Shown: positions 2,311 to 51,548 of the stretch, in pieces
How positions within the stretch are numbered: the stretch's first letter is position 1
How the letters are laid out: every line of letters starts with the position of its first letter
Source: an uncultured delta proteobacterium
Lineage (GTDB): Bacteria > Myxococcota_A > Polyangia > Polyangiales > Polyangiaceae
DNA: 64,000 nucleotides
Direction: 5' to 3'
Assembly (NCBI GenBank): GCA_963827955.1
Contig: CAWHDJ010000018.1
Location: 1,181,297-1,245,296, forward strand
Program-made: the position numbers and the translations under genes
The notes under the pieces: model-generated
The model's database searches: none
The model's input: only the letters and a program-made list of their open reading frames with translations
Told to the model about the DNA's origin: nothing

Positions 2311-3307
2311 CTACGATCGGTGCAGGTTCGCCACGATCCGCGCCCCGTCGACGTCGAAGCGGAAGCGGAGCTGGCGGAGGCCGCGCAGGGCCATGGCCTC
2401 GAGCACGCGGCGCCGGTCGGCCGGGCGCACGTAGAGCATGAAGAAGCCGCCGCCGCCCGCGCCCATCAGCTTGCCGCCGAGCGCGCCCGCGGCGCGCGCC
2501 GCCTCGTAGTGCTCGTCGAGCGTCGCGTCGGTCATCTTCGACGCCAGCTTGCGCTTGCGCTCCCAGTGGTGGTGGAGCAGCTCCCCGTAGCGATCGACGT
2601 CGCCCTGCACGAGCAGGCGGTAGACCTCGTGCCCGATCTCCTTGATGGCGTGCATCCGCTCGATCGCGTCGCCGTCCAGCTCGCGCAGCCGCTTGCCCTG
2701 CTCGGAGAGCACCACGCTCGCGGGCCGCTCCACGCCGGTCCAGACGATGAGCAGGTTGGTCTCGAGCTCGTCGAGCACCTCGTCCCGCACCGGGACGGGC
2801 TCCACCGCCACCGAGCCGTCGGTGCCGAAGGTGAACGCCGTCACGCTCCCGAACGCGGAGATGTACTGGTCCTGCTTGCCGATGGGCTCGCCGAGGCGGT
2901 CGATCTCGATGGAGCACGCCTCCTCCGCGAGCTGGCGCGAGCTGACGAACTCGCGCTTGTACGTGTGGAGGGCGTTGAGCAACGCCACTGTGAACGCGCT
3001 CGACGACCCGAGCCCGCTGTTCGCCGGCAGGTCGGCCACGCTCGTGAGCTCGATGGAGTGCTCGATCTGCGTCATCCGGAGCGCCTCGCGGAAGATGCGG
3101 TGCTCGATCTTGTCGACGCTGGGGACGATCTCCGTGTGCGAGTACGCGAGGCGGATGTCGCGGTGGAACCGCTTGTTGGCCGTGACGTAGATGTACTTGT
3201 CGATCGCGGCCGAGATCGAGGTAGCCGCCGAAGCGGTTGGAGTACGCGGGGAGGTCGGTGCCTCCACCGCCGAGGGAGAAACGGACGGGGGCGCGAGAGA
3301 CGATCAT
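2311..3307 (-). CDS. GHMP kinase (D-glycero-D-manno-heptose 7-phosphate kinase HddA-like), frameshifted near 3225
   Basis: The N-terminus in one frame (MIVSRAPVRFSLGGGGTDLPAYSNRFGGY) carries the GHMP P-x-R-[IF]-S-L-x-GGGTD motif. The remainder is in another frame (ORF 2311..3267: ISAAIDKYIYVT, PANSGLGSSSAF, MGAGGGGF). The single frameshift is either a sequencing indel or a pseudogene. Confidence 0.6.
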
Positions 3308-5764: not shown

Positions 5765-6673
5765 TCAGTTCAGGCTCACGTCCGTGCTCTGCGACCCCCC
5801 GAACACCCCTCGCTCCTTCGCCTGGGCCAGCACCCGGAGCGCCGTCCTGTACCCCCGCAACACCAGCGGGCGGGCGGCGAAGCGGTTCAGGTAGCCGTAG
5901 TGGCCGATGTCGGGGGCGATGTCGAGGAAGGTGACGTGGGGGTAGAGCTTGGAGAGCAGCTCGACGCCGCGCCGCTCCTTCTCGGTGAGCAGGATGTTGA
6001 GGGCCTGGCGCACCACGGCGTGGGCGCCGCGGCGGGCGATGTTGGAGTCGGTGGGGAGGACGCTCCTCCGGGCGGTAGATGTTCGAGATGATTACGACCG
6101 TGGCGCCCGCGGCGACGGCGATGTCGGCCGAGAGGGTGCGCGCGACCTCCCCGTCGAGGAAGTAGCGGCCGCCGATGCGGTACGGCCGGAAGAGGCCGGG
6201 CACGCAGCAGCTCGCCGCCACGGCCTGGCTGATGGGCACGCGCTCCTCGTACCCCGGGCCGAAGACGACGCGCTGGCCGTTGTCGACGTCGACGGCCGTC
6301 ACGAAGATCCGGTTCGGGAGCGCGCGGAAGTCGTTGATGGGCAGGTAGCCTGCGAGGTACCGCTCGAGCTTGTCGAGCGAGAACATGCCCGAGAGCACGT
6401 AGCCGGGGTCGAGCAGGTCGCGCAGGCGCGGCGCGCCCATGAACTTGTTGAGGTGCAGGCGCGGGCCCTGGTGGCGGCGCCGCCAGGGCAGCCGGTAGCC
6501 GTCGAGGAGCACGTCGAGCGGGATGTTCTGCCCGTAGGTGGCGCTCACGATGGCCCCGGCGCTCGCCCCGACGAAGACCTCCGGCTCGATGCCCAGCTCC
6601 TCGCAGGCCTTCAGCACGCCGAGGTGGGAGAGGCCGCGGGCGGCACCGCCGGATCCGATGAAGGCAATCTTGG
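5765..6673 (-). CDS. patatin-like phospholipase, frameshifted near 6050
   Basis: MPRTKIAFIGSGGAARGLSHLG (oxyanion GGxR), VGASAGA (GxSxG nucleophile) and FLDGEVA (catalytic DG[AG]). The C-terminal 83 aa are in another frame (ORF 5765..6016, MVRQALNILLTEKE..). Confidence 0.65.
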
Positions 6674-7313: not shown

Positions 7314-7374
7314 GCGGCGCGCAATCCGCGTGCCAAGAGACTCGTCGTTCGGGTCGAGCCGCTCGTCGTTCGAG

Positions 7375-7935
7375 CCGAGCGGATGGGCAAGCGTGCCGCG
7401 CGGATGGGTGAGCGTGCCGCGCGGATGGGCAAGCGTGCCGCGCGGATGGGCAAGCGAGCCGCGCGGATGGGAAAGCGTGCCGCGCGGATGGGCAAGCGAG
7501 CCGCGCGGATGGGCAAGCGAGCCGCGCGGATGGGCAAGCATGCCGCGCGGATGGGTAAAGCGAGCCGCGCGGATGGGCAAGCGTGCCGCGCGGATGGGCA
7601 AGCGAGCCGCGCGGATGGGCAAGCGTGCCGCGCGGATGGGCGGGTCGAGCCGCGCGGATGGGCAAGCGTGCCGCGCGGATGGGCGGGTGAGCCGTGCGGA
7701 TGGGCAAGCGTGCCGCGCGGATGGGCAAGCGAGCCGCGCGGATGGGCGGGTGAGCCGCGCGGAGGGGCAAGCGAGCCGTGCGGATGGGCAAGCGAGCCGC
7801 GCGGATGGGCGGGTGAGCCGCGCGGATGGGCAAGCGAGCCGCGCGGATGGGCAAGCGTGCCGCGCGGATGGGTGAGCGAGCCGCGCGGATGGGCAAGCGA
7901 GCCGCGCGGATGGGCAAGCGAGCCGCGCGGATGCG
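7375..7935. repeat. 21-bp tandem repeat array, about 27 copies (unit GCGCGGATGGGCAAGCG[A/T]GCC), intergenic
   Basis: It is directly visible in the sequence. Units are 20-22 bp with variants (gggtgagcg, gggcgggtgagcc), so no frame is conserved throughout. It lies between the thioredoxin stop and the next + strand gene. Confidence 0.85.
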
Positions 7936-7970: not shown

Positions 7971-8756
7971 GTGGTTGAGGGTGCGAGCAGCAGGTGGCTC
8001 CTCCTGGTTCGACGCGTCGCCGCCAGCGCGCTCGCCGCGGCCGCGTTCACGCTCCCGTCGGCGCGCGCCGAGGCGTACCGCCCCTTCGACGGCACCGACG
8101 CGGACACGGCGGAGCCCAGAGAATTCGAGCTCGAGCTCGGCCCCGTCAACTACTACCGCCAGGGGGATCAGATCTTCCTCATCACGCCCGGCATGGTCCT
8201 GAACTACGGCCTCGGCGCGAGGACCGAGCTGGTCTTCGACGCGAGTGTGTACGTGGGGGTCCACAAGCCGACCCCCGGGGCGCCGCGCGTGGCCCTGCGT
8301 GGGGACGACCTGCTCTTGAAGCACGTGTTCCGCGAAGGGATCCTTCAAGGGAAGACGGGCGTCAGCATCGCGGCGGAGGGAGGCGTGCTCACCCCCGAGA
8401 GCAGCGGGGGAGTCGTCGGCCTCGGCGCGTCGCTCGATGTCATCCTCTCGTACCAGTGGTCGTGGGGCACCATCCACTGGAACGAGTGGTTCCAGTACAC
8501 GCGCGACCACCACGCGGACCTCTACACCGGAGCCATCCTCGAAGGGCCTCACGACTGGAAGGTGCGACCCGTCGCCGAGCTCTACTACGAGAAGGATTTC
8601 GCGGCCGACCGAACCGGGTCCGTCCTCGTCGGCGCGATCTGGACCGTCAGCGAGTCGATCGCGATCGACGCCGGCTTTCGCGGCGCGCGGTCGGGCTCGG
8701 CGTACGTCACCGAGGCGAGGCTCGGGCTCACGTGGTCCATCCCGACCGAGGGCTGA
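7971..8756 (+). CDS. secreted protein, putative outer-membrane beta-barrel (MetA-pathway/phenol-degradation-like family?)
   Basis: The signal peptide (VRRVAASALAAAAFTLPSARA|EA) follows an in-frame GTG after the repeat array. Alternating hydrophobic beta-strand patterning is seen (LGLTWSI, VLVGAIWTV). The start is uncertain: GTG 7947, 7962 or 7971. Confidence 0.45.
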   Translation: MVEGASSRWLLLVRRVAASALAAAAFTLPSARAEAYRPFDGTDADTAEPREFELELGPVNYYRQGDQIFLITPGMVLNYGLGARTELVFDASVYVGVHKPTPGAPRVALRGDDLLLKHVFREGILQGKTGVSIAAEGGVLTPESSGGVVGLGASLDVILSYQWSWGTIHWNEWFQYTRDHHADLYTGAILEGPHDWKVRPVAELYYEKDFAADRTGSVLVGAIWTVSESIAIDAGFRGARSGSAYVTEARLGLTWSIPTEG

Positions 8757-8817: not shown

Positions 8818-10216
8818 ATGAGCGACCCCGACGCGCCCTTCCAGCGTGAAGAGTCCCTCGACAAGCCGGGCATCGTCGGCGCCCGCTGGTGGCAGCGCAG
8901 CCTGGAGGCGCCGCCGGACATGATGTCGCGCCGGCAGGCGGTGCAGGGCATGCTCGTCGCCGGCGGGGTCGTGGCGGGGCTCGGCGTGATGCTCGCCGTC
9001 GCGGGCGCGGCGTCGCACGCGTCGAGCGCTTCGAGCGCTTCGAGCGACTACCGGACGGAGACGCGCCCCTCGCTGGAGGCGCAGAAGAGCTTCGGGTGGA
9101 GCTTCGGCGCGCCCGGCGAGGCGCTGACCTTCGACGGCCGGTCGAAGCAGCCCTTCGACCGCGACGCCCTCGGGCGGATGGTGGACGACCTCCGCCCCGC
9201 GCGCCGCGAGCACGCGCCCTGGTACGTGCCCACGCTCTTCCAGGCCATCGGCGCCCAGCCGCGTGAGCGCGCGGTCGAGGAGACGACGCCCACGGTCCCG
9301 CTCGCGCAGGTCCTCCAGCCCATCTCCACGGCGGCGATGGACCTGGCCTATCGCCGCGGCAAGGCGCTCGCCTCGTTGTTCCAGGGCAAGGACGCGGCCG
9401 TCATGGTCGTCGTCGACCTGCCGGGGCCCGAGGCCGTCGCCTTCGCGGCCGGCGCCGCGGCCGTCTTCGATCCCGTCTTCGCCTTCGACAACTGGCCCCA
9501 CCCGCGCGGCGTCGTCCCTGCGCACCAGACCCTCGCCGCGGCGGCGTACTACCAGCCCCTCTTCGCCAAGCGTAGCGCCCCCGCCGGCGCGCCCGCGCTC
9601 GTCGCCCTCGATCGCCGGAGGCTCGCCTCCTATGCCGACGACGCGACGCAGTTCGACAACCGCCACGTCGCCCGCGTGCCCGGCGCCGCTGCGCTGAAAG
9701 CGCTCGGGATCAAGCGGGTGCTCTACGTCGCGCCGAGCGGGACGGACCGGGAGCTCGACGATCTCAACGACGATCCGGTCGCCTACATGCTGGCCGGGAT
9801 TGAGGTGCGGCTGGTCGGCGCGGACGCCTTCGGCCCCGAATCCGAGCGACGCGGGCAACACCGACGCGCCCTTCTACTACGGATCGAGCGCCCACACCCA
9901 CCTCGGGTTCTGGCTCGCCTACCGCTGGATCGAGCCCCCCCACTCCGCCCATCCGAGCGCGCCGGTCACGATGGGGGGAGACCCCCCATACCCCCCGGCC
10001 CAGCCGGTCCCACCCATGGCGGGCGCCGCATACGCCTTCGCGCCGCGCGCCTCGCCGTTCTCCAGCGGCTCCCTCACGGGATCGGCGGAGAGGCCGAGGC
10101 CGCCGGGCTTTGCCACCGTGCCGGTGATCGTCTCGGTCGCCACCGGCCTCGTCCTCGGCGCCAAGCTGTTCCGGAGCGGGTCGTGGAACCGCGCGTCGGG
10201 CTACTCCGGAGGGTAG
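8818..10216 (+). CDS. hypothetical protein with a Tat-like signal (SRRQAVQGMLVAGGVVAGLGV), frameshifted near 9838
   Basis: It starts at the internal M of ORF 8437..10434 (MSDPDAPFQ..). The real-looking C-terminus (NPSDAGNTDAPFYYGSSAHTHLGFWLAYRWIEPP...TVPVIVSVATGLVLGAKLF) lies in the frame of ORF 9800..10216. Confidence 0.4.
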
Positions 10217-11224: not shown

Positions 11225-14200
11225 ATGAGCCACGGTTCAGGAGCGAAGCATTCTGCCCCGCCGAGGGCCCGCTGGCTCCCTTCATTCGTCGCGCTGCTCG
11301 TGGCGGCCCTCGGGATTGTGGTCGGCTCCTCGTCCTGCTCGAACCTGGACCAGTTCAAGCCCGGGGGCACCGGCCCGGTCAACTCGACCGGCAGCGGCGG
11401 CTGCACCGGCCCGGAGTGCGCCGCGCTGTGCGACGAGCACCCGCAGCCGGGCTGCAAGTGCGACGTCGAGGGCCAGCACCTGCTCTGCAGCAAGGCCGAG
11501 GCGAGCTTCCCGACCGAGGGCACCAGCGATGGCGCCACCGTCTGCGGGACGGGCTTCTCCGTGTGCACCAAAGGGGTCTGGGGAGAGTGCCAATCGACGG
11601 CGCGGTCACCATCGTGCCCAACGCGCCCCCCGGGTTCTACGCCGAGAACCTCGGCACCGGGACGAACTGCGCGAAGAACCCGTGCGACCCGGCCTGCAAG
11701 GACTTCGTCGACACGCCGACCGGCGTCACGGGCACCGGCATCGCGTCAGCGACTCGGGCGTGACCATCGCCGGGACGGAGCACGTCTGCGTGCCGAAGAG
11801 CTGCGCGGCCTCGGCATCAACTGCGGGATGCAGAGCGACAGCTGCGGCGGCGTCATCGACTGCGGCACCTGCGCGTTCCCGCAGGTCTGCGGCGGCGGCG
11901 GCCCCAGTCAGTGCGGCGTCGGGGTCAGTTGCACCAACCTCTGCCCTACCAGAAGCAGTGCTCGGCCGGCGTCACGACGAGCATCAGCGGCACCGTCTAC
12001 ATGCCGAACGGCACGACCCGCTGCCGAACGTCCTCGTCTACGTGCCCAACGCGCCCCTCTCCGCCTTCACCAGCAGACGGCGTGCGTGACCGGCGGCAAC
12101 TGCCGGCCGAGGTCTCCGGCTCCCCGCTCGTGGCGACGACGAGCGCCATCGACGGCACGTTCCTGCTGACCAACATGCCGGCGGGCATCAGTTTCCCGGT
12201 CGTCCTCCAGCTCGGCCGCTTCCGGCGCGTGTTCACGATGCCGGCGGTCACGCAGTGCACGAACGCAACCGTGTCCTGCTCGACCCCGCAGAGCTGCCTC
12301 TCCCGCTTCCCGCAGTACGAGAACGAACGTCGTCCTACGACAACATCCCGAAGATGGCCTTCATCACGGGCTGCGTCGACGCGCTCGAGTGCGTCTGGCG
12401 GAAGGTCGGCATCGGCAGCACCGGGGCCCCGGGCCTCGGCGGCACCAGCTACGGCACGGGCGAGTTCACGCCCGGGCTCACGAACGGGCGCATCAACTTC
12501 TACGCCGGGAGCGGCTGCCCCGGGACGTACGTCACCGACATCGGCACCACCACGCCGTGGGATTCGACGCTGCTCGGCGACTCGACGATGCTCGCCAACT
12601 ACGACATGGTGCTCTTCCCCTGCCAGGGCAAGGAGTACTACTACGGGACGAACCGAATCCCGTACGAGTCGAACGTCACGACCTTCGTGAACGCGGGCGG
12701 GCGCGTCTTCTCGACCCACTACAGCTACACCTGGATCTTCTCGGACACGAACGGCTACTACAACTCCGCCCTCAACCCGGCGATCAACTGGCACGTCAAC
12801 CAGAGCTACGGCGGCTCCGATCCGACCACGGGTTACATCAACACCACCTTCCCCGGGGGCCAGACCCTGGCTTCGTGGCTCATGGTCCCTGCCGTCGGCG
12901 CGTCGACGACGTACGGCCAGATGCAGATCAACACGATCCGGCACGACTTCGACAGCGTGAACCCGCCGAGCCAGCTCTACGTGAGCCTCGGCACGCTGTC
13001 CTGCGCCAGCACCGGCTCGGACCCGAAGAACTGCGGTGGCTGCGGGAAGACCTGCGGCTTCGGGAAGGTCTGCTCGAACGGCGCTTGCGCGAGCTCGTGC
13101 GCGTCGGGCCTCAAGAGCTGCTCCAGCGCGTGCACGAACGTCAACACCGACCTGAACAACTGCGGGTCCTGCGGCAACGTGTGCGACCCCGGCCAGGTCT
13201 GCACCTCCGGCGTCTGCAAGTGCCCGTCGGGGAGCACCGACTGCAACGGGAGCTGCGTCGTCACCAACAGCGATCCGACCAACTGCGGCTCCTGTGGGAA
13301 TGCGTGCGGCGTCGGCCAGACGTGCAGCAGCGGGACGTGCACGTGCGTCCCCGGGCTGACGAAGTGCAACGGCGCCTGCGTGCTCACGTCCACCGATCCG
13401 AGCAACTGCGGCGGGTGCGGCACCACCTGCTCCTCGGGCAAGAAGTACTGCCGCGGCGGGACGTGCAGCTCGTCGACGTGCACCGCCGGCGGGTACCCCA
13501 ACACCTGCACCGTCGGGAACCGGTTCGCGTGCGACACCGCGACCAACCTCCTGTCGGATCCCAAGAACTGCGGGATGTGTGGCAACGCGTGCGCCGCGGG
13601 CCAGGTTTGCAGCAACGGCACCTGCACGAGCGGGGTCACCGTGTGCGGGTCCGGGCTCACGATCTGCAGCGGCTCCTGCACGCTCCTGTCCAACGATCCG
13701 AGCAACTGCGGGGCGTGCGGCACCGTGTGCCCCGACGGGGACGCCTGCGTGAACGGCGCGTGCACCTGCTCCTCCGGCGTCACGTGCCAGAACGGCATCC
13801 CCCAGCAGGCGAGCTTCAACACGCCGCTCGGGATCGCCGCGAACAACCAGTGCGGCCGCGTCGTGTTCAGCGACTTCCACGTCGAGTCCAGCAACGACTC
13901 GCAGTACGCGTTCCCGAGCGAGTGCGGCGGCGGCGGCCTCAGCCCGCAGGAGTTCATGCTGGCGCAGGCGCTCTTCGATCTCGCCGGGTGCGTCAACATC
14001 AGCCCGCCGCCGACCTGCACCCCCGTCACGTGTGGCTACCTCGGCCTCAACTGCGGGACGGCGGGCGACGGCTGCGGCAACACCATCAACTGCGGGACCT
14101 GCCCATCGGGCCAGAGCTGTGGCGGCGGCGGCTTCCCCGGTGTCTGCGGCGTCCCGCAGACCTTCTCCTCGGCGAGCTTCGTGCGCGACTACGACGCTTC

Positions 14201-14612
14201 CACCGTCTGCAACATGGCCGCGGGGGAGCACCCCATCTGGCGCCTGTACTCGTGGAGCGCGCTCACGCCGAAGGACTCGCACATCGACTTCAACATCGCG
14301 ACGGCGACATCGCTCGCCGGGCTCGCCACCGCGACGCCCTACCCGCTCCGCTGGTCCAACCCGCCGGGCATCCCGGCGACGTACACGTCCGCCCAGCAGG
14401 CGTCGGCCCACGCCGTGAACGAGCCCACGTCCGGCAAGCCCGACACGGAGCTCGGCGGCGCCTCGCCCGACGCGACGCTGCTCGCCAACGTGCTGCCGCA
14501 GAACAACTACTACGTCCGCGTGATCGCGACCCTTCAGCCCTCGAGCGACCTGCTGAGCGCGCCGGTCCTGTCCTCCTGGGACATGCAGATCGACTGCACC
14601 ACCATGGAGTGA
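11225..14612 (+). CDS. large secreted cysteine-rich repeat protein (at least 12 CxxCGxxC modules); the N-terminal 1.1 kb is broken by about 8 frameshifts
   Basis: The signal/lipobox is MSHGSGAKHSAPPRARWLPSFVALLVAALGIVVGSSSC. Protein-like segments alternate between the three + frames from 11225 to about 12320 (ORFs 10919, 11167, 11316, 11911, 12255). From 12320 to 14612 there is a single intact frame containing NCGGCGKTCGFGKVCSNGAC-type repeats and PTCTPVTCGYLGLNCGTAGDGCGN motifs. Confidence 0.55.
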
Positions 14613-14639
14613 TCCGGCGCCGCTCGATCGCAGACGCTC

Positions 14640-15524
14640 ATGATCGAAAGGCCCATGCCCACGCGCAAGCCCGTCAGGCAGCAACTCTTCGTGCTCGTGC
14701 CCGCGGTCGCGGGGATCGCCCTCTCCCTCGGGAGCGGCTGCGGCGGCGGCAGCCCGTCGTACCCGCTCTCGGATGGAGGGCTCGGGGCCTCGAGCACGTC
14801 GAGCTCCTCGCACGCCACGTCGAGCTTTTCCGGCGCCGGCGGCACCAGCTCGTCCAGCACGAGCGCATCGAGCACGAGCGCGTCGAGCACGAGCACGTCG
14901 AGCACGAGCGCATCGAGCACGAGCACGTCGAGCACGAGCACGAGTAACACGAGCGCGAGCACGAGCGCGAGCACGAGCACGAGCACGAGCACGTCGAGCG
15001 CGAGCAGCAGCGGGGAGGCGTGCACCGCCAACGGAGAGGCCTGCGTCGTGTTCTCCGACTGCTGCTCCCAGCAGTGCAACGCCGGCTTCTGCGGGCCGAT
15101 CGGCTGTTTCGCGAACGGTCAGGCCTGCTCCAGCGACAACGAGTGCTGCTCCATCAACTGCACCGACGGCATGTGCGCGAAGGGAGCGAGCTGCCTCGCG
15201 AACGGCTTCTCGTGCACGCTGGCGTCCGAGTGCTGCTCGACCGAGTGCAACGGCGGCAAGTGCGGTCCGGCGGGGTCGTGCAACGGCAACGGGATGGCGT
15301 GCTCGGACGACAGCCAGTGCTGCTCGAGCACGTGCGCCGGCGGCCAGTGCGCTCCGCAATCCTGCGCGCCGCCCGGGGGGAGCTGCAAGTCGGCGAGCGA
15401 TTGCTGCGGTGGTCTCAGCCAGTGCACCAAGGGCACGTGCACGAGCTGCAAGACGCTCGGGCAGCCATGCGCCGGGGCCGCGGACTGCTGCTCGGGTACG
15501 TGCAGCGGCGGGACCTGCGAGTGA
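14640..15524 (+). CDS. lipoprotein with S/T-rich linker and six cysteine-rich (C-x4-5-C-x4-DCCS-x2-C-x3-4-C) knottin-like repeats
   Basis: The signal is VLVPAVAGIALSLGSGC. The (STS)n linker is followed by CTANGEACVVFSDCCSQQCNAGFCG repeated 6 times. Confidence 0.6.
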   Translation: MIERPMPTRKPVRQQLFVLVPAVAGIALSLGSGCGGGSPSYPLSDGGLGASSTSSSSHATSSFSGAGGTSSSSTSASSTSASSTSTSSTSASSTSTSSTSTSNTSASTSASTSTSTSTSSASSSGEACTANGEACVVFSDCCSQQCNAGFCGPIGCFANGQACSSDNECCSINCTDGMCAKGASCLANGFSCTLASECCSTECNGGKCGPAGSCNGNGMACSDDSQCCSSTCAGGQCAPQSCAPPGGSCKSASDCCGGLSQCTKGTCTSCKTLGQPCAGAADCCSGTCSGGTCE

Positions 15525-15590: not shown

Positions 15591-18478
15591 ATGGATCCCG
15601 CACCCCTGCCTGCTCCGCGCTCCAGCCAGAAGCCCGCCTCGCCCCGCGTCCGGGTCGACGAGCTCGCCGTGTTCCTCCGCCGTGTGCTGCCGAACGGCGT
15701 GCGCATGGAGATCCGGCCACCCCGCCCGGTCACGGCCGCGGAAGCGCAGGTGCTCCCGCTCTTCGAGGGGTGGATCCTCGGGGCTGAGCTCTGTGTGCGG
15801 GCTTCCGGTCTCGCCGACGGGCCCTTCACCGCGGCGCTCACGGGGGAGGGCGGCGCCGTCCTCGGCGCGTCCGCGGCGGCGTCCACGCAGCCCGCCCAAG
15901 CCGAGGGCGCCGAGGGAGATGCCGAGGCGCCCGGGCGCGTCGCCTTCTCGCTCGAGCTGGCCGTCCCGCTGCAGTCCCTCACGTCGTACGCGGGGTCGAA
16001 GGCGGCGCTCGGCCTCCTCCTCGGTCGTGGCGCCGCCGCGCCCGGCAAGGATGCGCGCCGCGTCGCGCTCGTGGCGCTCACGCTGGTGGGCAAGAATGGG
16101 AGCGGGCCGCAGCTCTCGCAGGTGGACCTCCTCGACGCGACGGGCGCGACGCTCTTCGACGCTCCGGAGCGGCGCCTCTTCGACCTGCAGAACCCGGAGG
16201 AGGGGCTGTGGCTCGGCTCGGGCAAGTGGCGGCTCCGCCTCGTCGCGGACTGGGCACCTGCTCCGAAAGGCGGTGCGTCGTTCGCGCTCGATGCGCGGCC
16301 GGCCCAGCTCTTCCACCGTTACCTGCGCGGTGACGACGCTCCCGCGGTGGTCACCGAGGATCCGACCCGTCGCGCGGGCCAGGACGGCCGGCGCACGCTC
16401 GCCGAGCTGACGCTCGACACCTCGCACCCGGAGATCGGAAAGGTGCCGCAGGAAGGCAAGGATCTGCCGCTCGACATCGCGGTGGAGCACGCGCTCTCCT
16501 TCGGCGAGCACGCGGCGGTCCTGAGCTGGCACGCCGCGCTGCCCGTGCGCCTGCGCGACCCTCTGCCGCTGCTCAAGTCGTTCCAGCGGCTCTCTGCCGT
16601 GGGCATCGACTTCGGGACGACGTCGACCGTCGCCGCGCTGTACCAGAAGGGGTACCGCTCGCTGATGCGCCTCGGCAGCACGGCGGCGGCGGGCGCCAAG
16701 GGGGCGGAGAACCCGACCTACCTCCTGGTCGAGGATCACGAGCGGCTGTGGACCGAGATGGACCGCGACCCGGCGGCCTCCCGCTTCCCGAACCTGCTCC
16801 GCGTCGTGCGCGGCAGCCACGCGGCGCGAGAAGCGCTCGCCGACGTGCCGAGCGCCGTGGTCGGCGAGCTGAAGAGCCTGCCGGAGCGGGTCGTCACGCT
16901 CGACCAGTCGCCGCAGCTCCGCGACCGCGAGCGCCAGCGGGACTTCCTCCTCGACGAGGCCCGCGTGCGCGTGCTGGTCCGCGCGTACGCCTACCTCCTC
17001 GGGCCGCGCCATCAACCGCCCCGGGCAGGACGTCTACCTCCACTACTGGCTCACCCATCCGGCAAAGTTCGACGCGCGCGCCAAAAAGCTGCTCGAGGAG
17101 GAGATCAAGAACGGCATCCTCCTCAGCATCCCGTCGGGCATCCCCGCGAGCGAGGTCACCGTCGCCATGAGCGCCAGCGAGCCGGAGGCCTTCGCCGCCG
17201 AGGTCTGCCCCGAGCTCGCCGCGCACCCGGCGCTCGAGCCGGTGGTGGCGCGCTTCGGCGAGCTCCGCTTCGCGGTCTTCGACTTCGGCGGGGGCACCCT
17301 CGACGTCGCCTGCGGAAGGTTCCGCCCCGCGACCACGGAGGAGCAGGAGGAGTTCGGCAGCTCCACGGTGATCGAGACGCTCCAGGTGAGCGGCGACGAT
17401 CACCTGGGCGGCGAGTACCTGACCCACGAGCTGACCTGGCTGACGCACCAGCACGACCAGGCCCTCCCCGAGATGGAGGACAAGGAGGTGCCGATGATGC
17501 GCCCGCAGACGGTGCCGCCGAACAACCTCGCCGAGAAGGCGCACCTGTACAAGCGGAGCCTGGCGGGCCGGCAGAACCGATTCCGCTTCGAGCGCGAGCT
17601 CGGGCTGGAGGAGGTGAAGTTCGGCCCCGACCACGCGCCCCGGCGCACCGCCGGGATCGAGGCGGCGCGCCTCGACGGGACGGCGGCGAGGATCGAGTCG
17701 CTCGCGGGGGATCTCTCCGGCCTGCACGCGCGGCTCGAGGAGCACCTCGCCGCCCGCATCCGCGACGGCGTGAAGCTGATGAAGAGCATGCTCGCGATCG
17801 CGCCTTGGTCCGAACAGGCGTCCGAGCAGCAGGCCCCCGCGGCCAAGCCCGTCGACTTCCGCGAGCAGGGCGTCGTCATCCTCCTCGCCGGCAACTCGTC
17901 GCGGAGCGGCTTCGTCGAGCGGGCGCTCGCGGCGGAGCTGGGCATCCCCGGATCTCGCGGTCTGGCGGCCCGACGGCGCCGATTCACAGCCGTTCTCCCA
18001 CGTGGTGCTGTGGGAGACGCCCGAGCGCAAGGAGCGGGGCGCGACCATCGTCGGGGTGACGCCCAAGACCGCGGTCGCGCTGGGCGCCCTCAAGATCGCG
18101 AACCACGAGGTGCACCTCGTCCGCCGATCGCAGGGCTTCAGCTTCTTCCTGGGCGACCTGCGCGGCTTCCCGCCGAAGTTCACCGCCATCCTCCCCATGG
18201 GCACGCCGACGGCCGACCCTTCCGTCTTCGGCCCGCACTACGTCGACTTCGGCCGCTGGGACTCGAAGACCCCGCTCCGCGCCACCCGCGAGTACGTGCC
18301 CGGCAAGATGACGTCGAGCGACCCGCGCGTCTCGCTCGTCCCCACCGGCCTGCCGCCCGGCATCGTGGGCCGCCTCTACGTCTGCGTGGTCGCGCCGGAG
18401 GAGGTCGCCCTCATGCTCCAGCGCGAGGGGCAGGAGCCGGTCTGTGTGATGCTCGACCTCCAGAAGCTCACCTGGTGA
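15591..18478 (+). CDS. non-canonical Hsp70-family ATPase with an N-terminal extension of about 300 aa; two frameshifts (near 17005 and 17960)
   Basis: VGIDFGTTSTVAAL (phosphate-1), FAVFDFGGGTLDV (phosphate-2), SGDDHLGGEYLTHEL and VILLAGNSSRSGFV match Hsp70 nucleotide-binding-domain signature motifs. The protein continues across frames (ORFs 15591.., 17167.., 18002..18478). Confidence 0.55.
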
Positions 18479-18624: not shown

Positions 18625-20949
18625 ATGCCCCGGATGCACGGTCTAACGCTCGTCGTCGCCCGCCCCCAGGCGGGCCGCCCCGATTCCGAACCGACCCCGG
18701 CCGAAGAAGCAGGCGTCACCCCGAGGACGCAGGCCGACGCGATCCTCGACAACCTCGTCGAGGGGTCGAAGGTCCGCCTCCGGCTCGCGGAAGGAGAGGC
18801 GCTGCCCTTCCTCTGCGACCTCGGCGCGGCGCTCGCCACGCTCGCCGCCCGGGATCGGGCGCGCGCCACGCTGCGGCTCCCGGTCCACCCGGAGCCCTGG
18901 GAGATGGGGATGGAGCGCGCCGGCCGCGACGTGCTCGTCTCGGTCTTCCAGGGCGGCGGGATCCCCGAGGTGGCGCTCCACGAGCGGCGCGTCGACGGCG
19001 AAGCGATCGCCGCGCGCACGCTGGCGGCGCTCGGCGCGGCCGGCACGGCGCTCGCGCGCGAGGCGGAGACGCTGCTCGCCCAGGGCCTCCCCTTCGGCCC
19101 CGACGGCCCCTCGTCCGAGCCTGCCATCGTCGCGATCGAGCCGACCGGCGACGTCCCCCTCGTCCTCGCCGCGGACGTGCTCCTCCGCCCGCCTCCGCCC
19201 GCGCCCGTCGCGCCCCCGCCCGCCGTCCTGCGCGCCGACCTCTTCGCGCTCCTCTTCCGCGGCAAGATCCGCATCACCGTCGGAGACCACGCCCGCGAGC
19301 TCCCCGACGTCTTCGTCTTCCCCCTCGCCGAGCAGCTCGCCGCGCTCGCCGTCGAGGCCGTCGAGGCGTGGACGCGCGGCCGCCCCTACTACCGCAGGCT
19401 GGCGGCGTTCGGCGCCATCTGCGGCATGAAGCTCGACAGCGGCGGCGCCGCGTCCCTCACCCTCGGCGTGGAGCGCCGCCGCGAGGAGTCGCGCGCCCAG
19501 ACCTGGACCTTCCCCGCCGTCGACGTGGGCGCGCTCGGGCAAGGCGTGGTCGCGTTCGGGCGCGCGCTCGTGCGGAGCATCTCCCGCCGCGATCGCGCGC
19601 AGGCCAGTAACCTCCGCCTCCACGCCTTCCGCGGGCGCATCCGCGAGCTCGGCGAGCTGCTCCGCGCCGCGACCCGCGACGACTCCAAGATCAACGACGC
19701 CCCCGAGCGCTACCGCGCCTTCGCCGCCGCCGTGCGCCCCGCCGCCAACAACGCGGAGACCCCGCTCGCCCGCGCGCGCCTCCGCTACACCGCGCGCTGG
19801 ACGGCGGCCGTCCCCTCGATCGACCTCCGGTCCACCTTCCTCTGCGGCGACCGCGTGGTGGTGGGCGCGGCGCGCGAGCTCCACTGCCTGGACGCCGAGA
19901 CCGGCTCGCCCCTCTGGCGCCGGCCCGCCGGCCGCGCCGTATCGGTGATGACGCCGCTCGGCCTCGGCCGCCTCGACCCCGAAGGCCTCTTCTGCCTGCA
20001 CGACCTCGTGAGCGGCGAGCCGCTCTGGTCGACCCGCCTCTCGCCCCGCGTCGGGACGAGCGCGTCCGGCGCCGTGGTGAGCGCGCCCGGGCTGCCGCGG
20101 ATGCTCATCGTGAGCGAGGGGGCGCGGCACCTCGTGGCGATCGACCTCCACGGCGGCGAGATCAAGTGGCGCTTCGCCGCGCGGCGGGGCGGCGTCTTCC
20201 GCCTACGCCGGGCGGGCCGCCTCGTCATCGTCGCCAGCTCGGACCCGGCGCTCACCGCGCTCGACGTCCTGACGGGCGAGGTCGTGTGGCGCTTCTGCGA
20301 CCGCCTCCGCTTCGCCTCGCACGTCGCCGTGGACCACGACGCGCTCTTCGCCATCGCGGGCGGCGGCGCCTTCGTCGGCCGCGGGGGCACGCGCCTCCAC
20401 CACCTCGACCCCTGGTCCGGCGAGGGCCGCTGGAGCGTCGACCTCCCCGAGCACCTCGCGCCCGTCGGCGCGCCGCTCCTCGGGCCGGAGACGGTGGTCG
20501 TGGCGACGCACGGGCGGCGCGGGACGGGGCTCGTCGGCTTCGACCGCAAGACGGGCGCGCGGCGCTTCGAGCAGGCCGTCTGCGGCTCCGCGGCGTCGTG
20601 CCTGATGGTCGACGGCACCGTCATCGTCAACGGCGAGGACGGCGAGCTGACGGCCGTGTCGGCGAACGACGGGTCGACGCGCTACCGCCACGTCTTCTCC
20701 GGCGGCGGCGAGGGGGACCGACCGCGGCGCCTCGAGCCCGTCCTCCGCTCCGGCGCGCTCTTCGTCCCGCAGACCGAGGTCCACGTCGTGCGCCCCCAGG
20801 ACGGGACCATCCTCGGCCGCGTGCCGAACGACATCATCCCCGACCTGCTCCGCGTCGGCGAGCGCTGCGACGTGTACGTGGCGGAGGAGAGCGGGCACCT
20901 GGCCGCCTACGACGCGGGGCCCCGGCTCATGCTCGTGACCCCGGTGTAG
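18625..20949 (+). CDS. PQQ-like beta-propeller repeat protein with an N-terminal domain of unknown function
   Basis: The 774-aa ORF is intact. The C-terminal half shows repeated [G][S/E]xLW / DG-[TL]-[VI] propeller motifs (GSPLWRR, GEPLWST, GEIKWRF, GEVVWRF, DGTVIVNGEDGELTAV). It is co-oriented with the Hsp70-like gene. Confidence 0.6.
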   Translation: MPRMHGLTLVVARPQAGRPDSEPTPAEEAGVTPRTQADAILDNLVEGSKVRLRLAEGEALPFLCDLGAALATLAARDRARATLRLPVHPEPWEMGMERAGRDVLVSVFQGGGIPEVALHERRVDGEAIAARTLAALGAAGTALAREAETLLAQGLPFGPDGPSSEPAIVAIEPTGDVPLVLAADVLLRPPPPAPVAPPPAVLRADLFALLFRGKIRITVGDHARELPDVFVFPLAEQLAALAVEAVEAWTRGRPYYRRLAAFGAICGMKLDSGGAASLTLGVERRREESRAQTWTFPAVDVGALGQGVVAFGRALVRSISRRDRAQASNLRLHAFRGRIRELGELLRAATRDDSKINDAPERYRAFAAAVRPAANNAETPLARARLRYTARWTAAVPSIDLRSTFLCGDRVVVGAARELHCLDAETGSPLWRRPAGRAVSVMTPLGLGRLDPEGLFCLHDLVSGEPLWSTRLSPRVGTSASGAVVSAPGLPRMLIVSEGARHLVAIDLHGGEIKWRFAARRGGVFRLRRAGRLVIVASSDPALTALDVLTGEVVWRFCDRLRFASHVAVDHDALFAIAGGGAFVGRGGTRLHHLDPWSGEGRWSVDLPEHLAPVGAPLLGPETVVVATHGRRGTGLVGFDRKTGARRFEQAVCGSAASCLMVDGTVIVNGEDGELTAVSANDGSTRYRHVFSGGGEGDRPRRLEPVLRSGALFVPQTEVHVVRPQDGTILGRVPNDIIPDLLRVGERCDVYVAEESGHLAAYDAGPRLMLVTPV

Positions 20950-22003: not shown

Positions 22004-22320
22004 TCCGATCCCCACACACGCCTCGGCGATCCCCGCGTACGCCTCGGCGAACCCCACGTACGCCTCGGCGATCCACGCATACGCCTCGGCGATCCACGCA
22101 TACGCCTCGGCGATCCCCACATACGCTTCGGCGATCCCCACGTACGCCTTGGCGATCCACGCGTACGCCTCGGCGATCCCCACATACGCCTCGTCGATCC
22201 CCACGTACGCCTCGGCGAACCACGCGTACGCCTCGTCGATCCACACGTACGCCTCGTCGATCCCCACGTACGCCTCGGCGATCCACACGTACGCCTCGGC
22301 GATCCACGCCCGAGCTTGCG
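22003..22320. repeat. 21-bp tandem repeat array, about 15 copies (unit CGCCTCGGCGATCC[C/A]CRCGTA), in frame with the SUKH gene and encoding (EAYVGIA)n heptads on the - strand
   Basis: Direct reading. It is a different unit from the 7375-7935 array but the same 21-bp period. Confidence 0.85.
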
Positions 22321-22373: not shown

Positions 22374-22436
22374 GCCCTGTCTCCGTTTGGGCCATGCCTG
22401 TCTCCGTTTGGGCCCTGCCTGTCTCCGTTTGGGCCC
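22374..22436. repeat. 3 x 21-bp tandem repeat (CTGTCTCCGTTTGGGCCMTGC)
   Basis: Direct reading. It lies 200-260 bp upstream of the 22634 gene. Confidence 0.8.
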
Positions 22437-22633
22437 TGCGACCCCTGGGCTGCGCCTCGACCAGGCGCTCGGGCCCCCTCAGGATCCTTCCCAACCTTGC
22501 GAAACCACGATTTATTTTGGACCCACAGGCCACGGCGCGTCCGGCTCGCGGCGGGCAGGCACGGCGCTTGCGATGAGGGCTCGTCGACGCGGCAATCGGG
22601 CCGCGGATCACCCATCACAGAAAGGAGGGCCCC

Positions 22634-27050: not shown

Positions 27051-27126
27051 CAGGACGATCTCTGCCTTTCATGGCGCGCATGGGAGGGGCGCGCCGGTGA
27101 AGCGTCAAGGGGTCGTGCGCGGCGCT

Positions 27127-28356: not shown

Positions 28357-28941
28357 TCAGACGCAGAGCGTCGATAGCCAGTAATCCGCTCCGTCGCTGA
28401 GGTGGGCGACCTGGAGCGGGAGGCGCCCCTTCGTCGTCGCATAGGCCATCCTTCCGGGCCTCGGGCCGGACTTGGACACCGCGTGGTGACTGAAGACGAT
28501 CCCGCGGTACTCGACGCGAGGTTTTCCAAGGTCCGCGTGATGACCCACCATTGCGAGGAAGTAATCGGCGAGGAGCCTCGCGTTCTCGAGCTGGTCGATG
28601 GCGCCCTCCAGTTTCCCCGATTTGAGCTCGCACAGGAGCACGTAGAGCACGGGGTCATCCTCCCCCTGCTCGCAGAATATCCAGTAATCGCACATGCGCG
28701 CGACGCCTTCGATCTCGCGGAATAGCGGGAACAGCCGGTCCTTGACGCAGATCGGCTGACCCCTCGGGCCGAAGGAGATCTTCGCGTTGAAGGAGACCAC
28801 CACGCACTTGCCCGATTGGTGGATCCTCACGGGCTTGCACGTGCTGCCTTCGTCCTCCTCGCGCAGCTCGTTGTCCGTCACCACGAGGCCATGGCGGAGC
28901 ACCTCGTCGACGGCCTGGAGCCAGCGGGAGCCCTTACCCAT
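28357..28941 (-). CDS. hypothetical protein, partner of the AAA_21 ATPase (possible effector; acidic cluster CEQGEDD)
   Basis: It is 194 aa and its start overlaps the ATPase stop by 8 bp. GC is about 62%, against about 72% in the flanks. No HNH motif is seen. Confidence 0.45.
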   Translation of the reverse strand: MGKGSRWLQAVDEVLRHGLVVTDNELREEDEGSTCKPVRIHQSGKCVVVSFNAKISFGPRGQPICVKDRLFPLFREIEGVARMCDYWIFCEQGEDDPVLYVLLCELKSGKLEGAIDQLENARLLADYFLAMVGHHADLGKPRVEYRGIVFSHHAVSKSGPRPGRMAYATTKGRLPLQVAHLSDGADYWLSTLCV

Positions 28942-30280
28942 TGAGGGCCACGTAGATCTGCTGGGACACCGCGTTCAACTTGTTGATCTCCTCCTCGATG
29001 GTACGCGCCTCGAACCCTTCCTCGGTCACGGGCACGTTCTCGGCCGTGCCGCCCTGGAACAGGTACACGCCGAGCTTGGACGGGCTCAGCAGCTCGGCGT
29101 CGGCGTAGCCGAGCTCGGCGCGCAGATCCTTGATGGGCTGCGTGTCGCGAGAGAGGAGGACGAGGTTGTTCAGCTCGCGCAGGATGTAGTCGCTGTGCGT
29201 GCTCATGATCATGCGCAGGCCCCGGTTCACCGCCTTGGCGAGCACGCGAGCCACCTTCCGCTGATTATCCGGGTGGAGGTTCAGCTCGGGCTCGTCGATC
29301 ATGAGGAGGTCGCCCTTCCTGGCGATGTGGCGGAGAAAGAAGACGAGCCGCACGAGCGATTTGACGATGGAGGAGGAGAGGTGGATGCCGAGCGTCGCTG
29401 GCGCACCTTCCGGCTTGAATCCAACCTCGCCTTCTTTGGACAAATAGACGGCGCCGCCGAGGAGCGTCTCGAGCTCGACGGCCAGATCGGCGAACTCACC
29501 CTTCCCTTTTGCGAGGCGAACGAGATCATTCGCCATGCGAAGACTATCCTGTATCGGCCACGGATAGCGTCCGACATCGCGTGTGAGCGACATGGGCTCC
29601 GGTTGTGCATCGATTTTCGCCTCGACGATCCTGTCCACGAGCTCCATGCGGCGGGTAGAAAGCTCTTTCGCGAACATATCCACATCGACGCGCTCCGTGG
29701 GCAGGATCGCGCAATATGGCCAGCATGTCTTCATCACGATCGTGCCCAGTTCATCTCCAATTCCATCGGCCAGCACGTCCATCAGAGCGGACGGGATCTG
29801 AGTGAAAGGAACAGATTTGGGGGAATCGCGGTGAAAGGCATACGCAACCAGTGCGCGCCCTTGGATGTAAATGCGGACCTGATATTCTCCAGAATACGCA
29901 TATCCGATCGGGCTCACCATGCCCCAGCTTGGCTCGTTCGCTCCAGCGCGCAGCACGACTCGGACGTCTGCAAAATACTGCCGCTCGGCGGCGAAACACA
30001 GGTGTAGGCGGCTCGCGAGCTGGTCGGCCGCCTCTGCGAGGATGCGGGGCCACAGTGCGGCGATGCGCTCGATGGGGATCGCTTGCTGCGGCGACGCCAG
30101 CATCTCGCCCGCGAGCTCGTGGAATACCTTGGGCGCGCTGGGCGACCGGAAGAGCCCGTATACGCTCCACGCCACGTACGTCTTCCCCGTGCCGTTCGGC
30201 CCGGTCAGCAGGATCATCTCCTTCGAGAGATCGACCTCCGCCTCGCGCAGCGGGCCCAGGTTTTCGACGCGGAAGAACAT
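28934..30280 (-). CDS. AAA_21/AAA_15 ABC-type ATPase (OLD/AbiL/PARIS/Septu-like ATPase component)
   Basis: It starts at MFFRVENLGPL. It has Walker A LTGPNGTGKTY, Walker B LLMIDEPELNLHP and H-loop IMSTHSDY, and is low-GC relative to the surroundings. Confidence 0.65.
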   Translation of the reverse strand: MFFRVENLGPLREAEVDLSKEMILLTGPNGTGKTYVAWSVYGLFRSPSAPKVFHELAGEMLASPQQAIPIERIAALWPRILAEAADQLASRLHLCFAAERQYFADVRVVLRAGANEPSWGMVSPIGYAYSGEYQVRIYIQGRALVAYAFHRDSPKSVPFTQIPSALMDVLADGIGDELGTIVMKTCWPYCAILPTERVDVDMFAKELSTRRMELVDRIVEAKIDAQPEPMSLTRDVGRYPWPIQDSLRMANDLVRLAKGKGEFADLAVELETLLGGAVYLSKEGEVGFKPEGAPATLGIHLSSSIVKSLVRLVFFLRHIARKGDLLMIDEPELNLHPDNQRKVARVLAKAVNRGLRMIMSTHSDYILRELNNLVLLSRDTQPIKDLRAELGYADAELLSPSKLGVYLFQGGTAENVPVTEEGFEARTIEEEINKLNAVSQQIYVALNG

Positions 30281-30397
30281 CGCCCGGGCACCATACCCGC
30301 GGCGCCCCAGGCCCGGCAAGCCGCCGGCCGACCAGCCCCGACGCAGACGCCCGTCCCGGGCGCCGCGCCGTCATGCGAGCGCGTTTGCGTGACGGTC

Positions 30398-30460
30398 GGC
30401 GTCTCTCGCGATGGCGCGAGCGCCTCTCGCGATGACGCGAGCACCTCCCGCGATGGCGCG
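30398..30460. promoter_or_regulatory. 3 x 21-bp tandem palindromic repeats (CTCTCGCGATGGCGCGAGCGC; core TCGCG-N4-CGCGA) in the divergent ATPase/MVP intergenic region
   Basis: Direct reading. Each unit contains a perfect 5-4-5 inverted repeat, which is operator-like. It sits 120-180 bp upstream of the ATPase start and about 110 bp upstream of the MVP start. Confidence 0.45.
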
Positions 30461-30566
30461 AGCGCTTCTCGGGTAACGCGCTCGCGCTGACGCGTTGCGT
30501 TGCCAGGCCCATCCGACGAGCACGCGCGTCCCGCTCCTGGTGCCCATTCCGGTGTAGCCTTCCCCC

Positions 30567-33434: not shown

Positions 33435-33513
33435 CGGGCGGGCTCACGCGCGGCCGTGGTTGCGTGCCGAGCCTGCGTGACGCTACCGTGTCGCCGAGCG
33501 AGCCACCGAGACC

Positions 33514-35806
33514 ATGCCCAAGGACGCCCCCGGACATCGCTTTCGTTTCTTTCGCGCCGGCGGATTCGATCAGGTCCGCCTCGACCGTGGGGAGGACATC
33601 CTGGCCCTCCAGGAGCTGGATCAGAAGCTCTGGGTCGCGCTGGGCTGCCCGATCCACGGCCTCGAGTTCGACGAGAAGACGCTCTCGCTGATCGACACGG
33701 ACAAGGACGGCCGCATCCGCGCGCCGGAGATCCTCGCGGCCATCAAGTGGGTCGGCTCGGTGCTCAAGAGCCCGGACAGCCTGCTCAAGCGGCTGCCCTC
33801 GCTCCCGCTCGCGGCCATCGACGGCAAGAGCGAGGAGGGCAAGCGGCTGCTCTCGTCGGCGAAGCGGATCCTCGCGAACCTCGACAAGAAGGGCGCCGAG
33901 GAGATCTCGCTCGACGACACGACGGACACGGCGAAGGTCTTCGCCGCGACCAAGTTCAACGGCGACGGCATAGTCCCCGCCACGTCCTCGGACGACCCGT
34001 GGCTCGCGAAGGCGATCGAGGACGTCATCGCGTGCGCCGGCTCGGTCGTCGACCGCAGCGGCGCCCCCGGCGTCTCGCAGGAGAAGGTCGACGCGTTCTT
34101 CGCCGAGGCGGAGGCGTTCGCGGCCTGGTGGGCCGAGGCCGACGACGACGCGGCGAACGTGCTGCCGCTCGGCGAGCGCACCGCGGCCGCCGCCGACGTG
34201 ATCCGCGCCGTGCGGGCGAAGATCGACGACTACTTCACGCGCACGCGCCTCGCCGCCTTCGACCTCCGAGCGGTGAAGGCGCTGAACCGCGACGAGGCCG
34301 AGTACGTCGCCCTCGCGGCGCAGCAGCTCTCCGCCTCGGCCGACGAGGTCGCCTCCTTCCCCATCGCCCACGTCGAGGCGGATCGCGCCCTGCCGCTCCG
34401 CGCGGGGCTGAACCCCGCGTGGGCCCCGGCCATCAAGAAGCTGGTGGCGGAGGTCGTGGTGCCCGTGCTCGGCGACAAGACGGAGCTGACCGCCGACGAC
34501 TGGCGATCGCTCTCCGCGCGCTTCGACGCGTTCGAGGCGTGGCGCGGGCGGAAGAAGGGCGCGACGGTGGAGCCGCTCGGGCGCGATCGGGTCAAGGAGC
34601 TCCTCGAAAGGGGGGCCAAGGCGCAGATCGAGGCGCTCATCGCCGAGGACAAGGCGCTGGAGGACGAGGCGAACGCCATCGACCAGGTGGACAAGCTCGT
34701 CCGGTACCACCGCGACCTCCACGCGCTGCTCAACAACTTCGTCACCTTCCGCGACTTCTATTCGAAGAAGAAGAAGGCGCTCTTCCAGGCGGGCACCCTG
34801 TACCTCGACGGCCGGAGCTGCGAGCCTCTGCGTCAAGGTCGCCGACGCCGCCGCGCACGCCACGCTCGCGACGCAGAGCGGCACCTACCTCGTCTACTGC
34901 GAGTGCGTGCGCAAGGGCACGGGGGAGAAGATTGTCATCGCCGCCGCCATGACGGGCGGCGACGCCGACGACCTGATGGTCGGCCGCAACGGCATCTTCT
35001 ACGACCGCAAGGGCAACGACTGGGACGCGACCATCATCAAGCTGATCCAGCACCCCATCAGCACGCGGGAGGCGTTCTGGCTCCCCTACAAGCGGGTGGC
35101 GAAGCTCATCGGCGATCAGGTCGAGAAGTTCGCGTCGACGCGCGACAAGGAGATGCAGGACAAGGCGGCGACGAGCATCGCCGAGACGGGCAAGGCGGCG
35201 GAGGGCCCGCCTGCCGCGGCCGCTCCCGCTGCCCCGCCGGCGCCCGCGCCGGGCGCGGCGGCGGCCCCGCCCGCGAAGCCGGCGTTCGAGATCGGGGCGC
35301 TGGCGGCCATCGGGCTCGCGATCGGCGCCGTCGGCTCCGCGGTCGCCGCGGTGGCGACCGGCTTCCTGGCGCTGTCGTGGTGGCAGATGCCGCTCGCGAT
35401 CGGGGGCGTGCTCCTCGCGATCTCCGGGCCCTCGGTCATCCTCGCCTGGCTCAAGCTGCACCGGCGCAACATCGGGCCGCTGCTCGACGCGAACGGCTGG
35501 GCCGTGAACGCGCGGGCCAAGCTGAACATCCCGTTCGGCAGCTCCCTCACGGGGGTCGCGGCGCTCCCGGCCAACGCGGAGCGATCCCTCGAGGACCCGT
35601 TCGCCGATCCGAAGCCGGTCTGGCCCCGCTACGTCGCCGCGATCGCCGTGATCGGCGCCCTCGGCGCAGCGTGGCACTACGGGTACCTGTCGATGCTGTG
35701 GGCGAAGGTCACCGCGCCGCCGGCGCCCCGCCCCGTCGCGAGCGCCGCCCCGCTGGCTTCCGCCGCGCCACCGGCGCCCGCCGCGCCCGCGGCGCCCCAC
35801 AAGTAA
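33514..35806 (+). CDS. hypothetical membrane-anchored protein (EF-hand-like loop DTDKDGRIRAPE; C-terminal TM hairpin), frameshift near 34830
   Basis: It is 80 bp downstream of MVP on the same strand. The first 430 aa are in ORF 33514.. and the remainder in ORF 34907..35806 (LCVKVADAAAH...). Two C-terminal TM helices (AFEIGALAAIGLAIGAVGSAVAAV, LAIGGVLLAISGPSVILAWL) are followed by an Ala/Pro-rich tail. Confidence 0.5.
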
Positions 35807-51488: not shown

Positions 51489-51548
51489 GAGCGGGTCTTA
51501 CTCCAGGCTTCCAAAGGACGCCTCCGGTGGGTCATCCTCCGCCGCCCG

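Follow-up and report, generated by a model that had tools for sequence, protein, structure and literature searches.

Clustered one-base frameshifts in a Polyangia genome assembly are probably sequencing or assembly errors and not signs of dying genes

Introduction

Two kinds of described system come closest to the pattern of broken reading frames that we discuss here. In bacterial genomes assembled from long reads, residual single-base indels break open reading frames (ORFs), chiefly in stretches to which polishing reads cannot be assigned; the relevant reports concern Polypolish (PMC8812927), Nanopore R10.4 (PMC9262707) and Kastor (PMC12007338). Curated pseudogenes have a different character. 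Among 151 of them from Burkholderia, indel sizes are broad (single-nucleotide events make up 131 of the 396 deletions), 300 insertions stand against the 396 deletions, the two are mixed everywhere, and substitutions occur alongside (PMC6054270).

The window, i.e. the whole stretch of DNA that was analysed, is 64 kb long, and it belongs to a myxobacterium of the Polyangia with Minicystis and Sorangium among its relatives. It contains ~30 one-base frame breaks; 29 were counted, and 18 of these lie inside two short patches. A preliminary description of this DNA had called the distribution of frameshifts extremely uneven, and had leaned towards indel error as the cause. In what follows, we describe the two patches and the isolated shifts around them, and weigh sequencing or assembly errors against mutations and dying genes. 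We put the probability that the clustered frameshifts are such errors at about 0.85.

Reading frames in GC-rich DNA

The window has a G+C content of 71% (mean 0.713) and a GC content at third codon positions (GC3) of ~97%, so that the true reading frame is legible straight from composition. Wrong frames can run for hundreds of codons without a stop, and lists of ORFs therefore mislead here. For a model of codon usage we took 13 long ORFs with strong bias from the window as the training set, and then divided the sequence by seven-state Viterbi segmentation. Together with GC3 frame plots, this revealed rapid switching of frame on the plus strand at 11283-12325 and 51521-52983; the segmentation also returned isolated frame switches additional to these two stretches. 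Intact homologues were compared with the DNA by a purpose-written, frameshift-aware protein-to-DNA alignment. An ordinary tblastn search of the window with the homologues was uninformative, because off-frames stay open in GC-rich DNA. Gene boundaries were told from frameshifts by the positions of stop codons, by three-frame reading and by domain continuity; the frame switches at 912, 3304, 4028, 4987, 28940, 45637, 47792, 59585 and 60032 proved to be ordinary gene boundaries. Corrected ORFs were chosen by GC3, choice by length having given spurious frames. Shift positions are accurate to a few bases only, since the best relatives are 58% (Cys-rich gene) and 79-83% (decarboxylase) identical. 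Rfam recorded no RNA family in the window, and exact copies of two of its intact proteins are not on record.

Two patches of frameshifts

The first patch occupies part of a gene for a Cys-rich protein:

11225-14612, plus strand: gene for a Cys-rich secreted or membrane-anchored protein with Stig1-like Cys repeats (PF04885), from a large Polyangia paralogue family
11591-12322, plus strand: Patch 1, 8 frameshifts in 732 bp, at ~11591, 11744, 11808, 11946, 12016, 12075, 12104 and 12322
12323-14612, plus strand: the clean remaining 2.3 kb of the Cys-rich gene, in one frame and with no stop codon

The start codon of the gene is the ATG at 11225 (homologue P0003 aligns from Met1), and its product is ~1129 aa long once 8 missing bases are put back. 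A search with the conceptually joined protein gave 637 hits; a scan of the species-representative genome collection turned up no relative. The homologues, from Polyangia metagenome bins and Minicystis, are intact and 47-58% identical, and they align to 94-97% of the corrected protein's N-terminal 600 aa. Frameshift-aware alignment to four of them (P0001, P0002, P0003 and P0006) returned the same eight sites. Every one is a one-base deletion, with one homologue residue unmatched per junction. Inspection of the contexts suggests contraction of a short run at most sites (e.g. CAA[A]TC, GCC[C]TC, CCC[C]TAC, ACCC[C]GCTG and GAA[A]CG), and no such reading at two of the eight. The clean part forms a single Viterbi segment, 12325-14783, with an ORF at 12255-14612.

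The second patch falls within a decarboxylase gene:

51549-52997, plus strand: gene for a Group II PLP-dependent (aromatic-amino-acid type) decarboxylase (PF00282), 479 aa when corrected
51669-52948, plus strand: Patch 2, at least 10 frameshifts in 1280 bp, from alignment to four orthologues

In the corrected protein, PF00282 (Pyridoxal_deC) spans residues 64-415 (E = 4e-50). Over its full length it is 79-82% identical to the intact orthologues P0121, P0124, P0126 and P0128, from Minicystis and other Polyangia (81% for those of Minicystis); orthologues in the species-representative genome collection reach at most 75%. The Minicystis loci around the orthologous gene have only the decarboxylase and an MFS transporter in common with the window. 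Five of the shifts are -1 (51669, 52119, 52292, 52396 and 52948) and five are +1 (51977, 52443, 52486, 52724 and 52794). Between 52790 and 52850, a conserved stretch, ...SDAEE-DA-NRRLC-AKVNEKQ..., is split in pieces over all three frames, from which it follows that 1 to 3 further -1 shifts are probably hidden there, and that the decarboxylase total may be 11-13. The PLP-lysine motif D-P-H-K is present in the corrected protein (TLDPHKTLFLPYG), with one extra C inside it at the DNA level, GACCC[C]GCACAAG.

These results bear out most of what the preliminary description had said of the two genes. It had counted about 8 frame switches at the 5' end of the Cys-rich gene, and the number is exactly 8; it had called the next 2.3 kb clean, as they are. 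For the decarboxylase it had rightly noted repeated switching, but its count of 7-8 was too low.

Isolated frameshifts

Outside the patches, 11 isolated frameshifts affect 10 of ~50 genes, of unrelated functions, and all 11 are one-base insertions:

3215-3220, minus strand: +1 at 3217 in the GHMP (HddA-like heptose-7-phosphate) kinase gene, context CTC-G-ATC
6060-6066, minus strand: +1 at 6062 in the patatin-like gene, after the patatin domain, context GAG-C-GTC
9842-9848, plus strand: +1 at 9844 in the Tat-signal protein gene, context TCC-G-AGC, from codon usage and ORF restoration only
16999-17003, plus strand: +1 at 17001 in the Hsp70/actin-like 950-aa gene (15591-18473), context CTCGGGCCGC
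17945-17949, plus strand: second +1 in the Hsp70-like gene (15591-18473), at 17947, context ATCCCCGGATC, alignment ELGI/PDL
27096-27104, minus strand: +1 at ~27100 in the SDR gene, codons 2-3, ATG AA[A] GGC, corrected N-terminus MKAEIVLVTGFTSGIG
34823-34827, plus strand: +1 at 34825 in the MVP partner, a conserved gene that follows the MVP-like gene, context GAG-C-CTC
42870-42878, minus strand: +1 at 42874 in the vWA-like lipoprotein gene, close to its 3' end, from codon usage and ORF restoration only
48383-48389, minus strand: +1 at 48385 in the SPFH/Band 7 gene, just past the Band_7 domain, context CTC-G-CAG
58090-58096, minus strand: +1 at ~58093 in the N-terminal part of the di-haem cytochrome c peroxidase-like gene, context TGGATTCGTGG
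61249-61255, plus strand: +1 at 61251 in the cytosolic 5'-nucleotidase family gene, context GCC-G-CTC

Removal of one base restores a full ORF, with a GC3 of 0.92-0.97, in all of these cases. For several, profiles or homologues run across or up to the junction. The corrected GHMP kinase matches NCBIfam NF049969 over residues 2-322 (profile positions 3-333 of 338); the 5'-nucleotidase covers positions 1-458 of 460 of the PF05761 profile; and SDR profiles begin at residues 2-4 of the corrected SDR protein. In the Hsp70-like protein, alignment to P0241 and P0243 (80% identity) reads AYLL/GRAIN at 17001 with no residue lost, and the MVP partner, aligned to P0362 and P0363, reads SCE/LCV. The patatin-like gene becomes a 305-aa ORF (GC3 0.95), as judged from the reading frames and ORF restoration. 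The extra base in the vWA-like lipoprotein gene probably sits in a CCCC run; the corrected ORF ends at ~42785 and no longer overlaps the convergent gene.

All nine of the genes in which single frameshifts had previously been noticed do carry one, in each case one added base, and the Hsp70-like shifts at 17001 and 17947 are additional to them. Genes that had been called intact are likewise each in one frame: MVP (30567-33434), PQQ-repeat (18625-20949), SppA and transposase (61693-63099).

Clustering, size and sequence context

The unevenness first noticed is far beyond chance. In none of 20000 random placements of 29 shifts in 64 kb did 10 fall within 1.3 kb or 8 within 750 bp, and if the single shifts are taken to set the background (1.8e-4 per nt), Poisson probabilities for the patches are 2e-12 and 9e-14. 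The isolated shifts are compatible with a uniform distribution (KS P = 0.84), at ~1 per 5.5 kb. All 29 shifts are of one base: in alignments to homologues, -1 sites lose exactly one residue and +1 sites lose none. The ratio of insertions to deletions is 11:0 among the single shifts, 0:8 in Patch 1 and 5:5 in Patch 2; for single shifts versus Patch 1, this difference in direction gives a Fisher P of 1.3e-5.

Short homopolymers had been put forward as favouring long-read error. Six of 16 insertions are indeed at runs of three or more, but ~0.25-0.31 is expected by chance, and about half of the sites lie outside such runs altogether (e.g. CTC-G-ATC, CTC-G-CAG and ATG-C-GAC). The enrichment is marginal, and too weak to serve as an argument. 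GC content and internal repeats, as causes of the patches, found no support either: GC is 0.70 and 0.74 in the patches, which is not unusual against the mean of 0.713, and there is no near-identical repeat of either patch within the window.

A context CTG -> CTCG is common to the +1 sites at 3217, 48385 and 52486. In a 21-nt tandem array that contains two +1 units, one unit shows the same change relative to its siblings. CTG -> CTCG may be a systematic error motif.

The contexts bear also on recoding, by programmed ribosomal frameshifting or transcriptional slippage, and on phase variation, under which the shifts would act as switches for a protein of the cell surface. The Cys-rich product probably has such a location, and a few sites are at short runs. 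However, runs at the shift sites reach 4 nt at most, and slippery heptamers were not seen there; 8-10 consecutive recoding events in one mRNA would be without precedent; and every gene tested has intact orthologues in one frame. With the shifts not conserved in those orthologues, recoding may be regarded as effectively refuted, and the combined reading, phase variation included, has a negligible chance of being correct.

Errors or decay

Both patch genes are unambiguously disrupted by comparison with intact orthologues, and this is what a pseudogene would show. If pseudogenisation were genuine, and very recent, the 8 and at least 10 indels of the patches would all be real, and only the single shifts, if any, would be errors. 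The other marks of decay are absent. Among 138 columns of the decarboxylase conserved at 98% or more in 120 homologues, the corrected protein keeps 136, intact homologues themselves having 0-3 mismatches; one of its two differences is a changed residue and the other is a codon hit by a deletion. This comparison with orthologues, which had been proposed as a check, shows single-frame intact relatives and a protein with nearly all of its near-invariant residues. In the Cys-rich gene, conserved columns differ at 3 of 87 positions in the shifted part versus 3 of 112 in the clean part. GC3 is 0.971 in Patch 1 and 0.965 in Patch 2, against a window median of 0.971, and no corrected frame contains an in-frame stop codon. 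What is found in the broken genes is one-base indels only, with conserved residues kept and codon bias intact; invariant residues have not been lost. The absence of relaxed selection in these genes favours error.

So does the size of the indels. Every one is 1 nt long, unlike those of curated pseudogenes, and 18 indels with essentially no substitutions make an indel-to-substitution ratio unlike that of neutral bacterial decay. Sizes and directions are not mixed over the whole reading frame, as they would be in a pseudogene: Patch 1 has eight deletions out of eight in 732 bp. In Patch 1 the position of the lesions also speaks for error. A dead gene would be neutral over its whole downstream part, yet the cluster in the Cys-rich gene ends within the gene, and the 2.3 kb beyond it are free of lesions. 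After the first shift, the other 7 fall within the next 731 of 3021 nt, for which P = 5e-5 under uniform decay. Patch 2 differs in that its limits match one gene almost exactly, as those of a real pseudogene would, and for this reason a small chance of a truly dead decarboxylase remains. Surface proteins from large paralogue families can, moreover, often be dispensed with, and the Cys-rich protein comes from such a family. All told, we regard genuine pseudogenisation as very unlikely.

Error is favoured, finally, by the uniform background of +1 shifts in 10 unrelated genes. Those affected include the heptose kinase, the SDR, the SPFH protein and a widely conserved Hsp70-like protein, and one added base in each of ten unrelated genes of a large, free-living myxobacterial genome is not credible biology. 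The direction of the indels points the same way: it is specific to each compartment, which does not fit one mutational process but does fit differences in data support.

A real mutational process in the living organism, localised or genome-wide, might be sought in a mutator lineage deficient in mismatch repair, or in error-prone patch synthesis with bursts of single-base indels. Single-base indels are dominant in repair-deficient strains, as they are here; the clusters are compact; and two +1 units lie in the 21-nt tandem array. But frameshifts in ~20% of genes, conserved ones included, would be very costly, a single process does not account for a deletion-only patch and an insertion-only background, and substitutions at conserved sites are not in excess. 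We consider such a process extremely improbable. A further proposal takes both clusters as real: in a Polyangia lineage not yet sampled, a recent, localised burst of single-base indels would have inactivated a highly conserved decarboxylase together with the 5' third of the gene for a surface protein. The burst would have to be too recent for substitutions to have followed, and error-prone synthesis over ~1 kb could be its source. This seems to us highly unlikely. Were the indels real, the two patches would exhibit an unusual, clustered indel process; the evidence opposes it.

We prefer sequencing or assembly error, then, as the preliminary description did, mainly on the grounds of retained conservation, of indel size and direction, and of position, with homopolymers contributing little. 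The assembly consensus would carry a low, uniform level of +1 insertion errors, ~1 per 5.5 kb, and two stretches of ~0.7 kb and 1.3 kb would have been called from much poorer evidence. Few reads or a single one may have supported them, they may be gap-filled or may have escaped polishing, or there may have been reads that could not be placed. The indel error rate in the patches would have risen to ~1%, with a different spectrum in each: deletions only in Patch 1, and mixed in Patch 2. A technical cause, and the technology or assembly step responsible for it, are what we infer from the pattern as a whole. Judged from their sequences, the genes for the Cys-rich surface protein and the PLP decarboxylase, like the ten with isolated shifts, most probably remain whole and working in the living organism.

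Consequences for annotation

Anyone annotating this window would list about a quarter of its genes as pseudogenes, or as split or extended ORFs, and the same presumably holds for the assembly at large. Claims of gene decay for this organism that rest on this assembly would be wrong. In DNA of 71% GC, with wrong frames open for hundreds of codons, errors produce long false proteins and not obvious truncations. The corrected gene models can be reused. So can the tests that distinguish error from decay without reads: retention of conserved columns, GC3, the size and direction of indels, and their position within the gene. The frameshift pattern is useful for quality control, and is no biological novelty.

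Comparison with known systems

Like the pseudogenes of Burkholderia (PMC6054270), the patch genes have ORFs broken by several frameshifts relative to functional orthologues. Unlike them, the events in the window are all of 1 nt, and have a direction specific to the compartment, while conserved residues, GC3 and freedom from stop codons are untouched. The errors of long-read and hybrid assemblies are the closer match, with one difference: those that have been published are mostly in homopolymers and repeats, whereas about half of the sites in the window are outside runs of three or more, and the patches are not repeats within it. Because the patches are unremarkable in GC and repeats, and runs are little above chance, a long-read platform or its polishing is a cause that we can only infer. 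In the window as in those assemblies, one-base indels break genes that are otherwise conserved, and full-length proteins are restored by reference to intact homologues; the errors are also concentrated in stretches beyond the reach of polishing, as the two patches may be.

Tandem arrays and single-base insertions

The window contains four tandem arrays. Each has a period of 21 nt, and the units differ from one array to another:

7371-7933, the largest, 26.7 copies, upstream of the gene at ~7990-8756
22006-22305
22376-22439
30399-30471

Read on the minus strand, the 22006-22305 array gives the heptad AEAYVGI; despite this reading, it may be non-coding. Two of the 27 units in the 7371-7933 array are 22 nt long. 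The first has TAAAG where its sibling units have CAAG, and the second has GTCGAG where they have GTGAG. The +1 types in these units (one extra base each) are those found in genes of the window.

A CpG is created at many of the +1 sites, in the following contexts:

3217, GHMP kinase gene, CTC-G-ATC
9844, Tat-signal protein gene, TCC-G-AGC
48385, SPFH gene, CTC-G-CAG
52486, PLP-decarboxylase gene, CTC-G-CTC
61251, 5'-nucleotidase gene, GCC-G-CTC
7636, GT-C-GAG

These sites could represent a systematic motif of consensus or polishing error (CTG to CTCG); alternatively, they could be due to chance, the DNA being CpG-rich.

Genes of the window

The following genes and gene pairs are described here:

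61693-63099, +, Tn5-type transposase, intact
28360-30319, -, PD-T4-4 anti-phage defence system, complete, both genes present
30567-35790, +, major-vault-protein (MVP)-like gene, then a conserved partner gene
14640-15524, +, second Cys-rich protein, small and secreted, directly 3' of the large Cys-rich gene
15591-18473, +, Hsp70/actin-like protein, ~950 aa, ATPase motif GIDFGTTST

The transposase (domains Tnp_DNA_bind and Dimer_Tnp_Tn5) has a GC3 of 0.86, clearly below that found elsewhere in the window, suggesting that its gene was acquired recently. The island holding the PD-T4-4 system is low in GC (0.61-0.67). PD-T4-4_A, an AAA_15-type ATPase of 461 aa, matches over its full length (E = 5e-88) and PD-T4-4_B matches with E = 2e-12; neither gene is frameshifted.

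The MVP-like protein (955 aa) comprises MVP_shoulder and Vault_3 domains. Its downstream partner, a conserved, membrane-anchored protein of ~750 aa, is without any Pfam domain; the representative library contains 1968 relatives of it.

The small Cys-rich gene keeps a single frame throughout. A repeat with a unit of 6 or 15 nt (14842-15006) codes for a low-complexity, Ser/Thr-rich linker in its product, which also has CxxxCC-type repeats.

The Hsp70/actin-like gene carries two +1 shifts (17001 and 17947) and was absent from the frameshifted genes listed in the preliminary description. Its protein has no match in Pfam or NCBIfam and is labelled ‘Molecular chaperone DnaK’ in one source; single-ORF proteins 60-80% identical to it occur Polyangia-wide.
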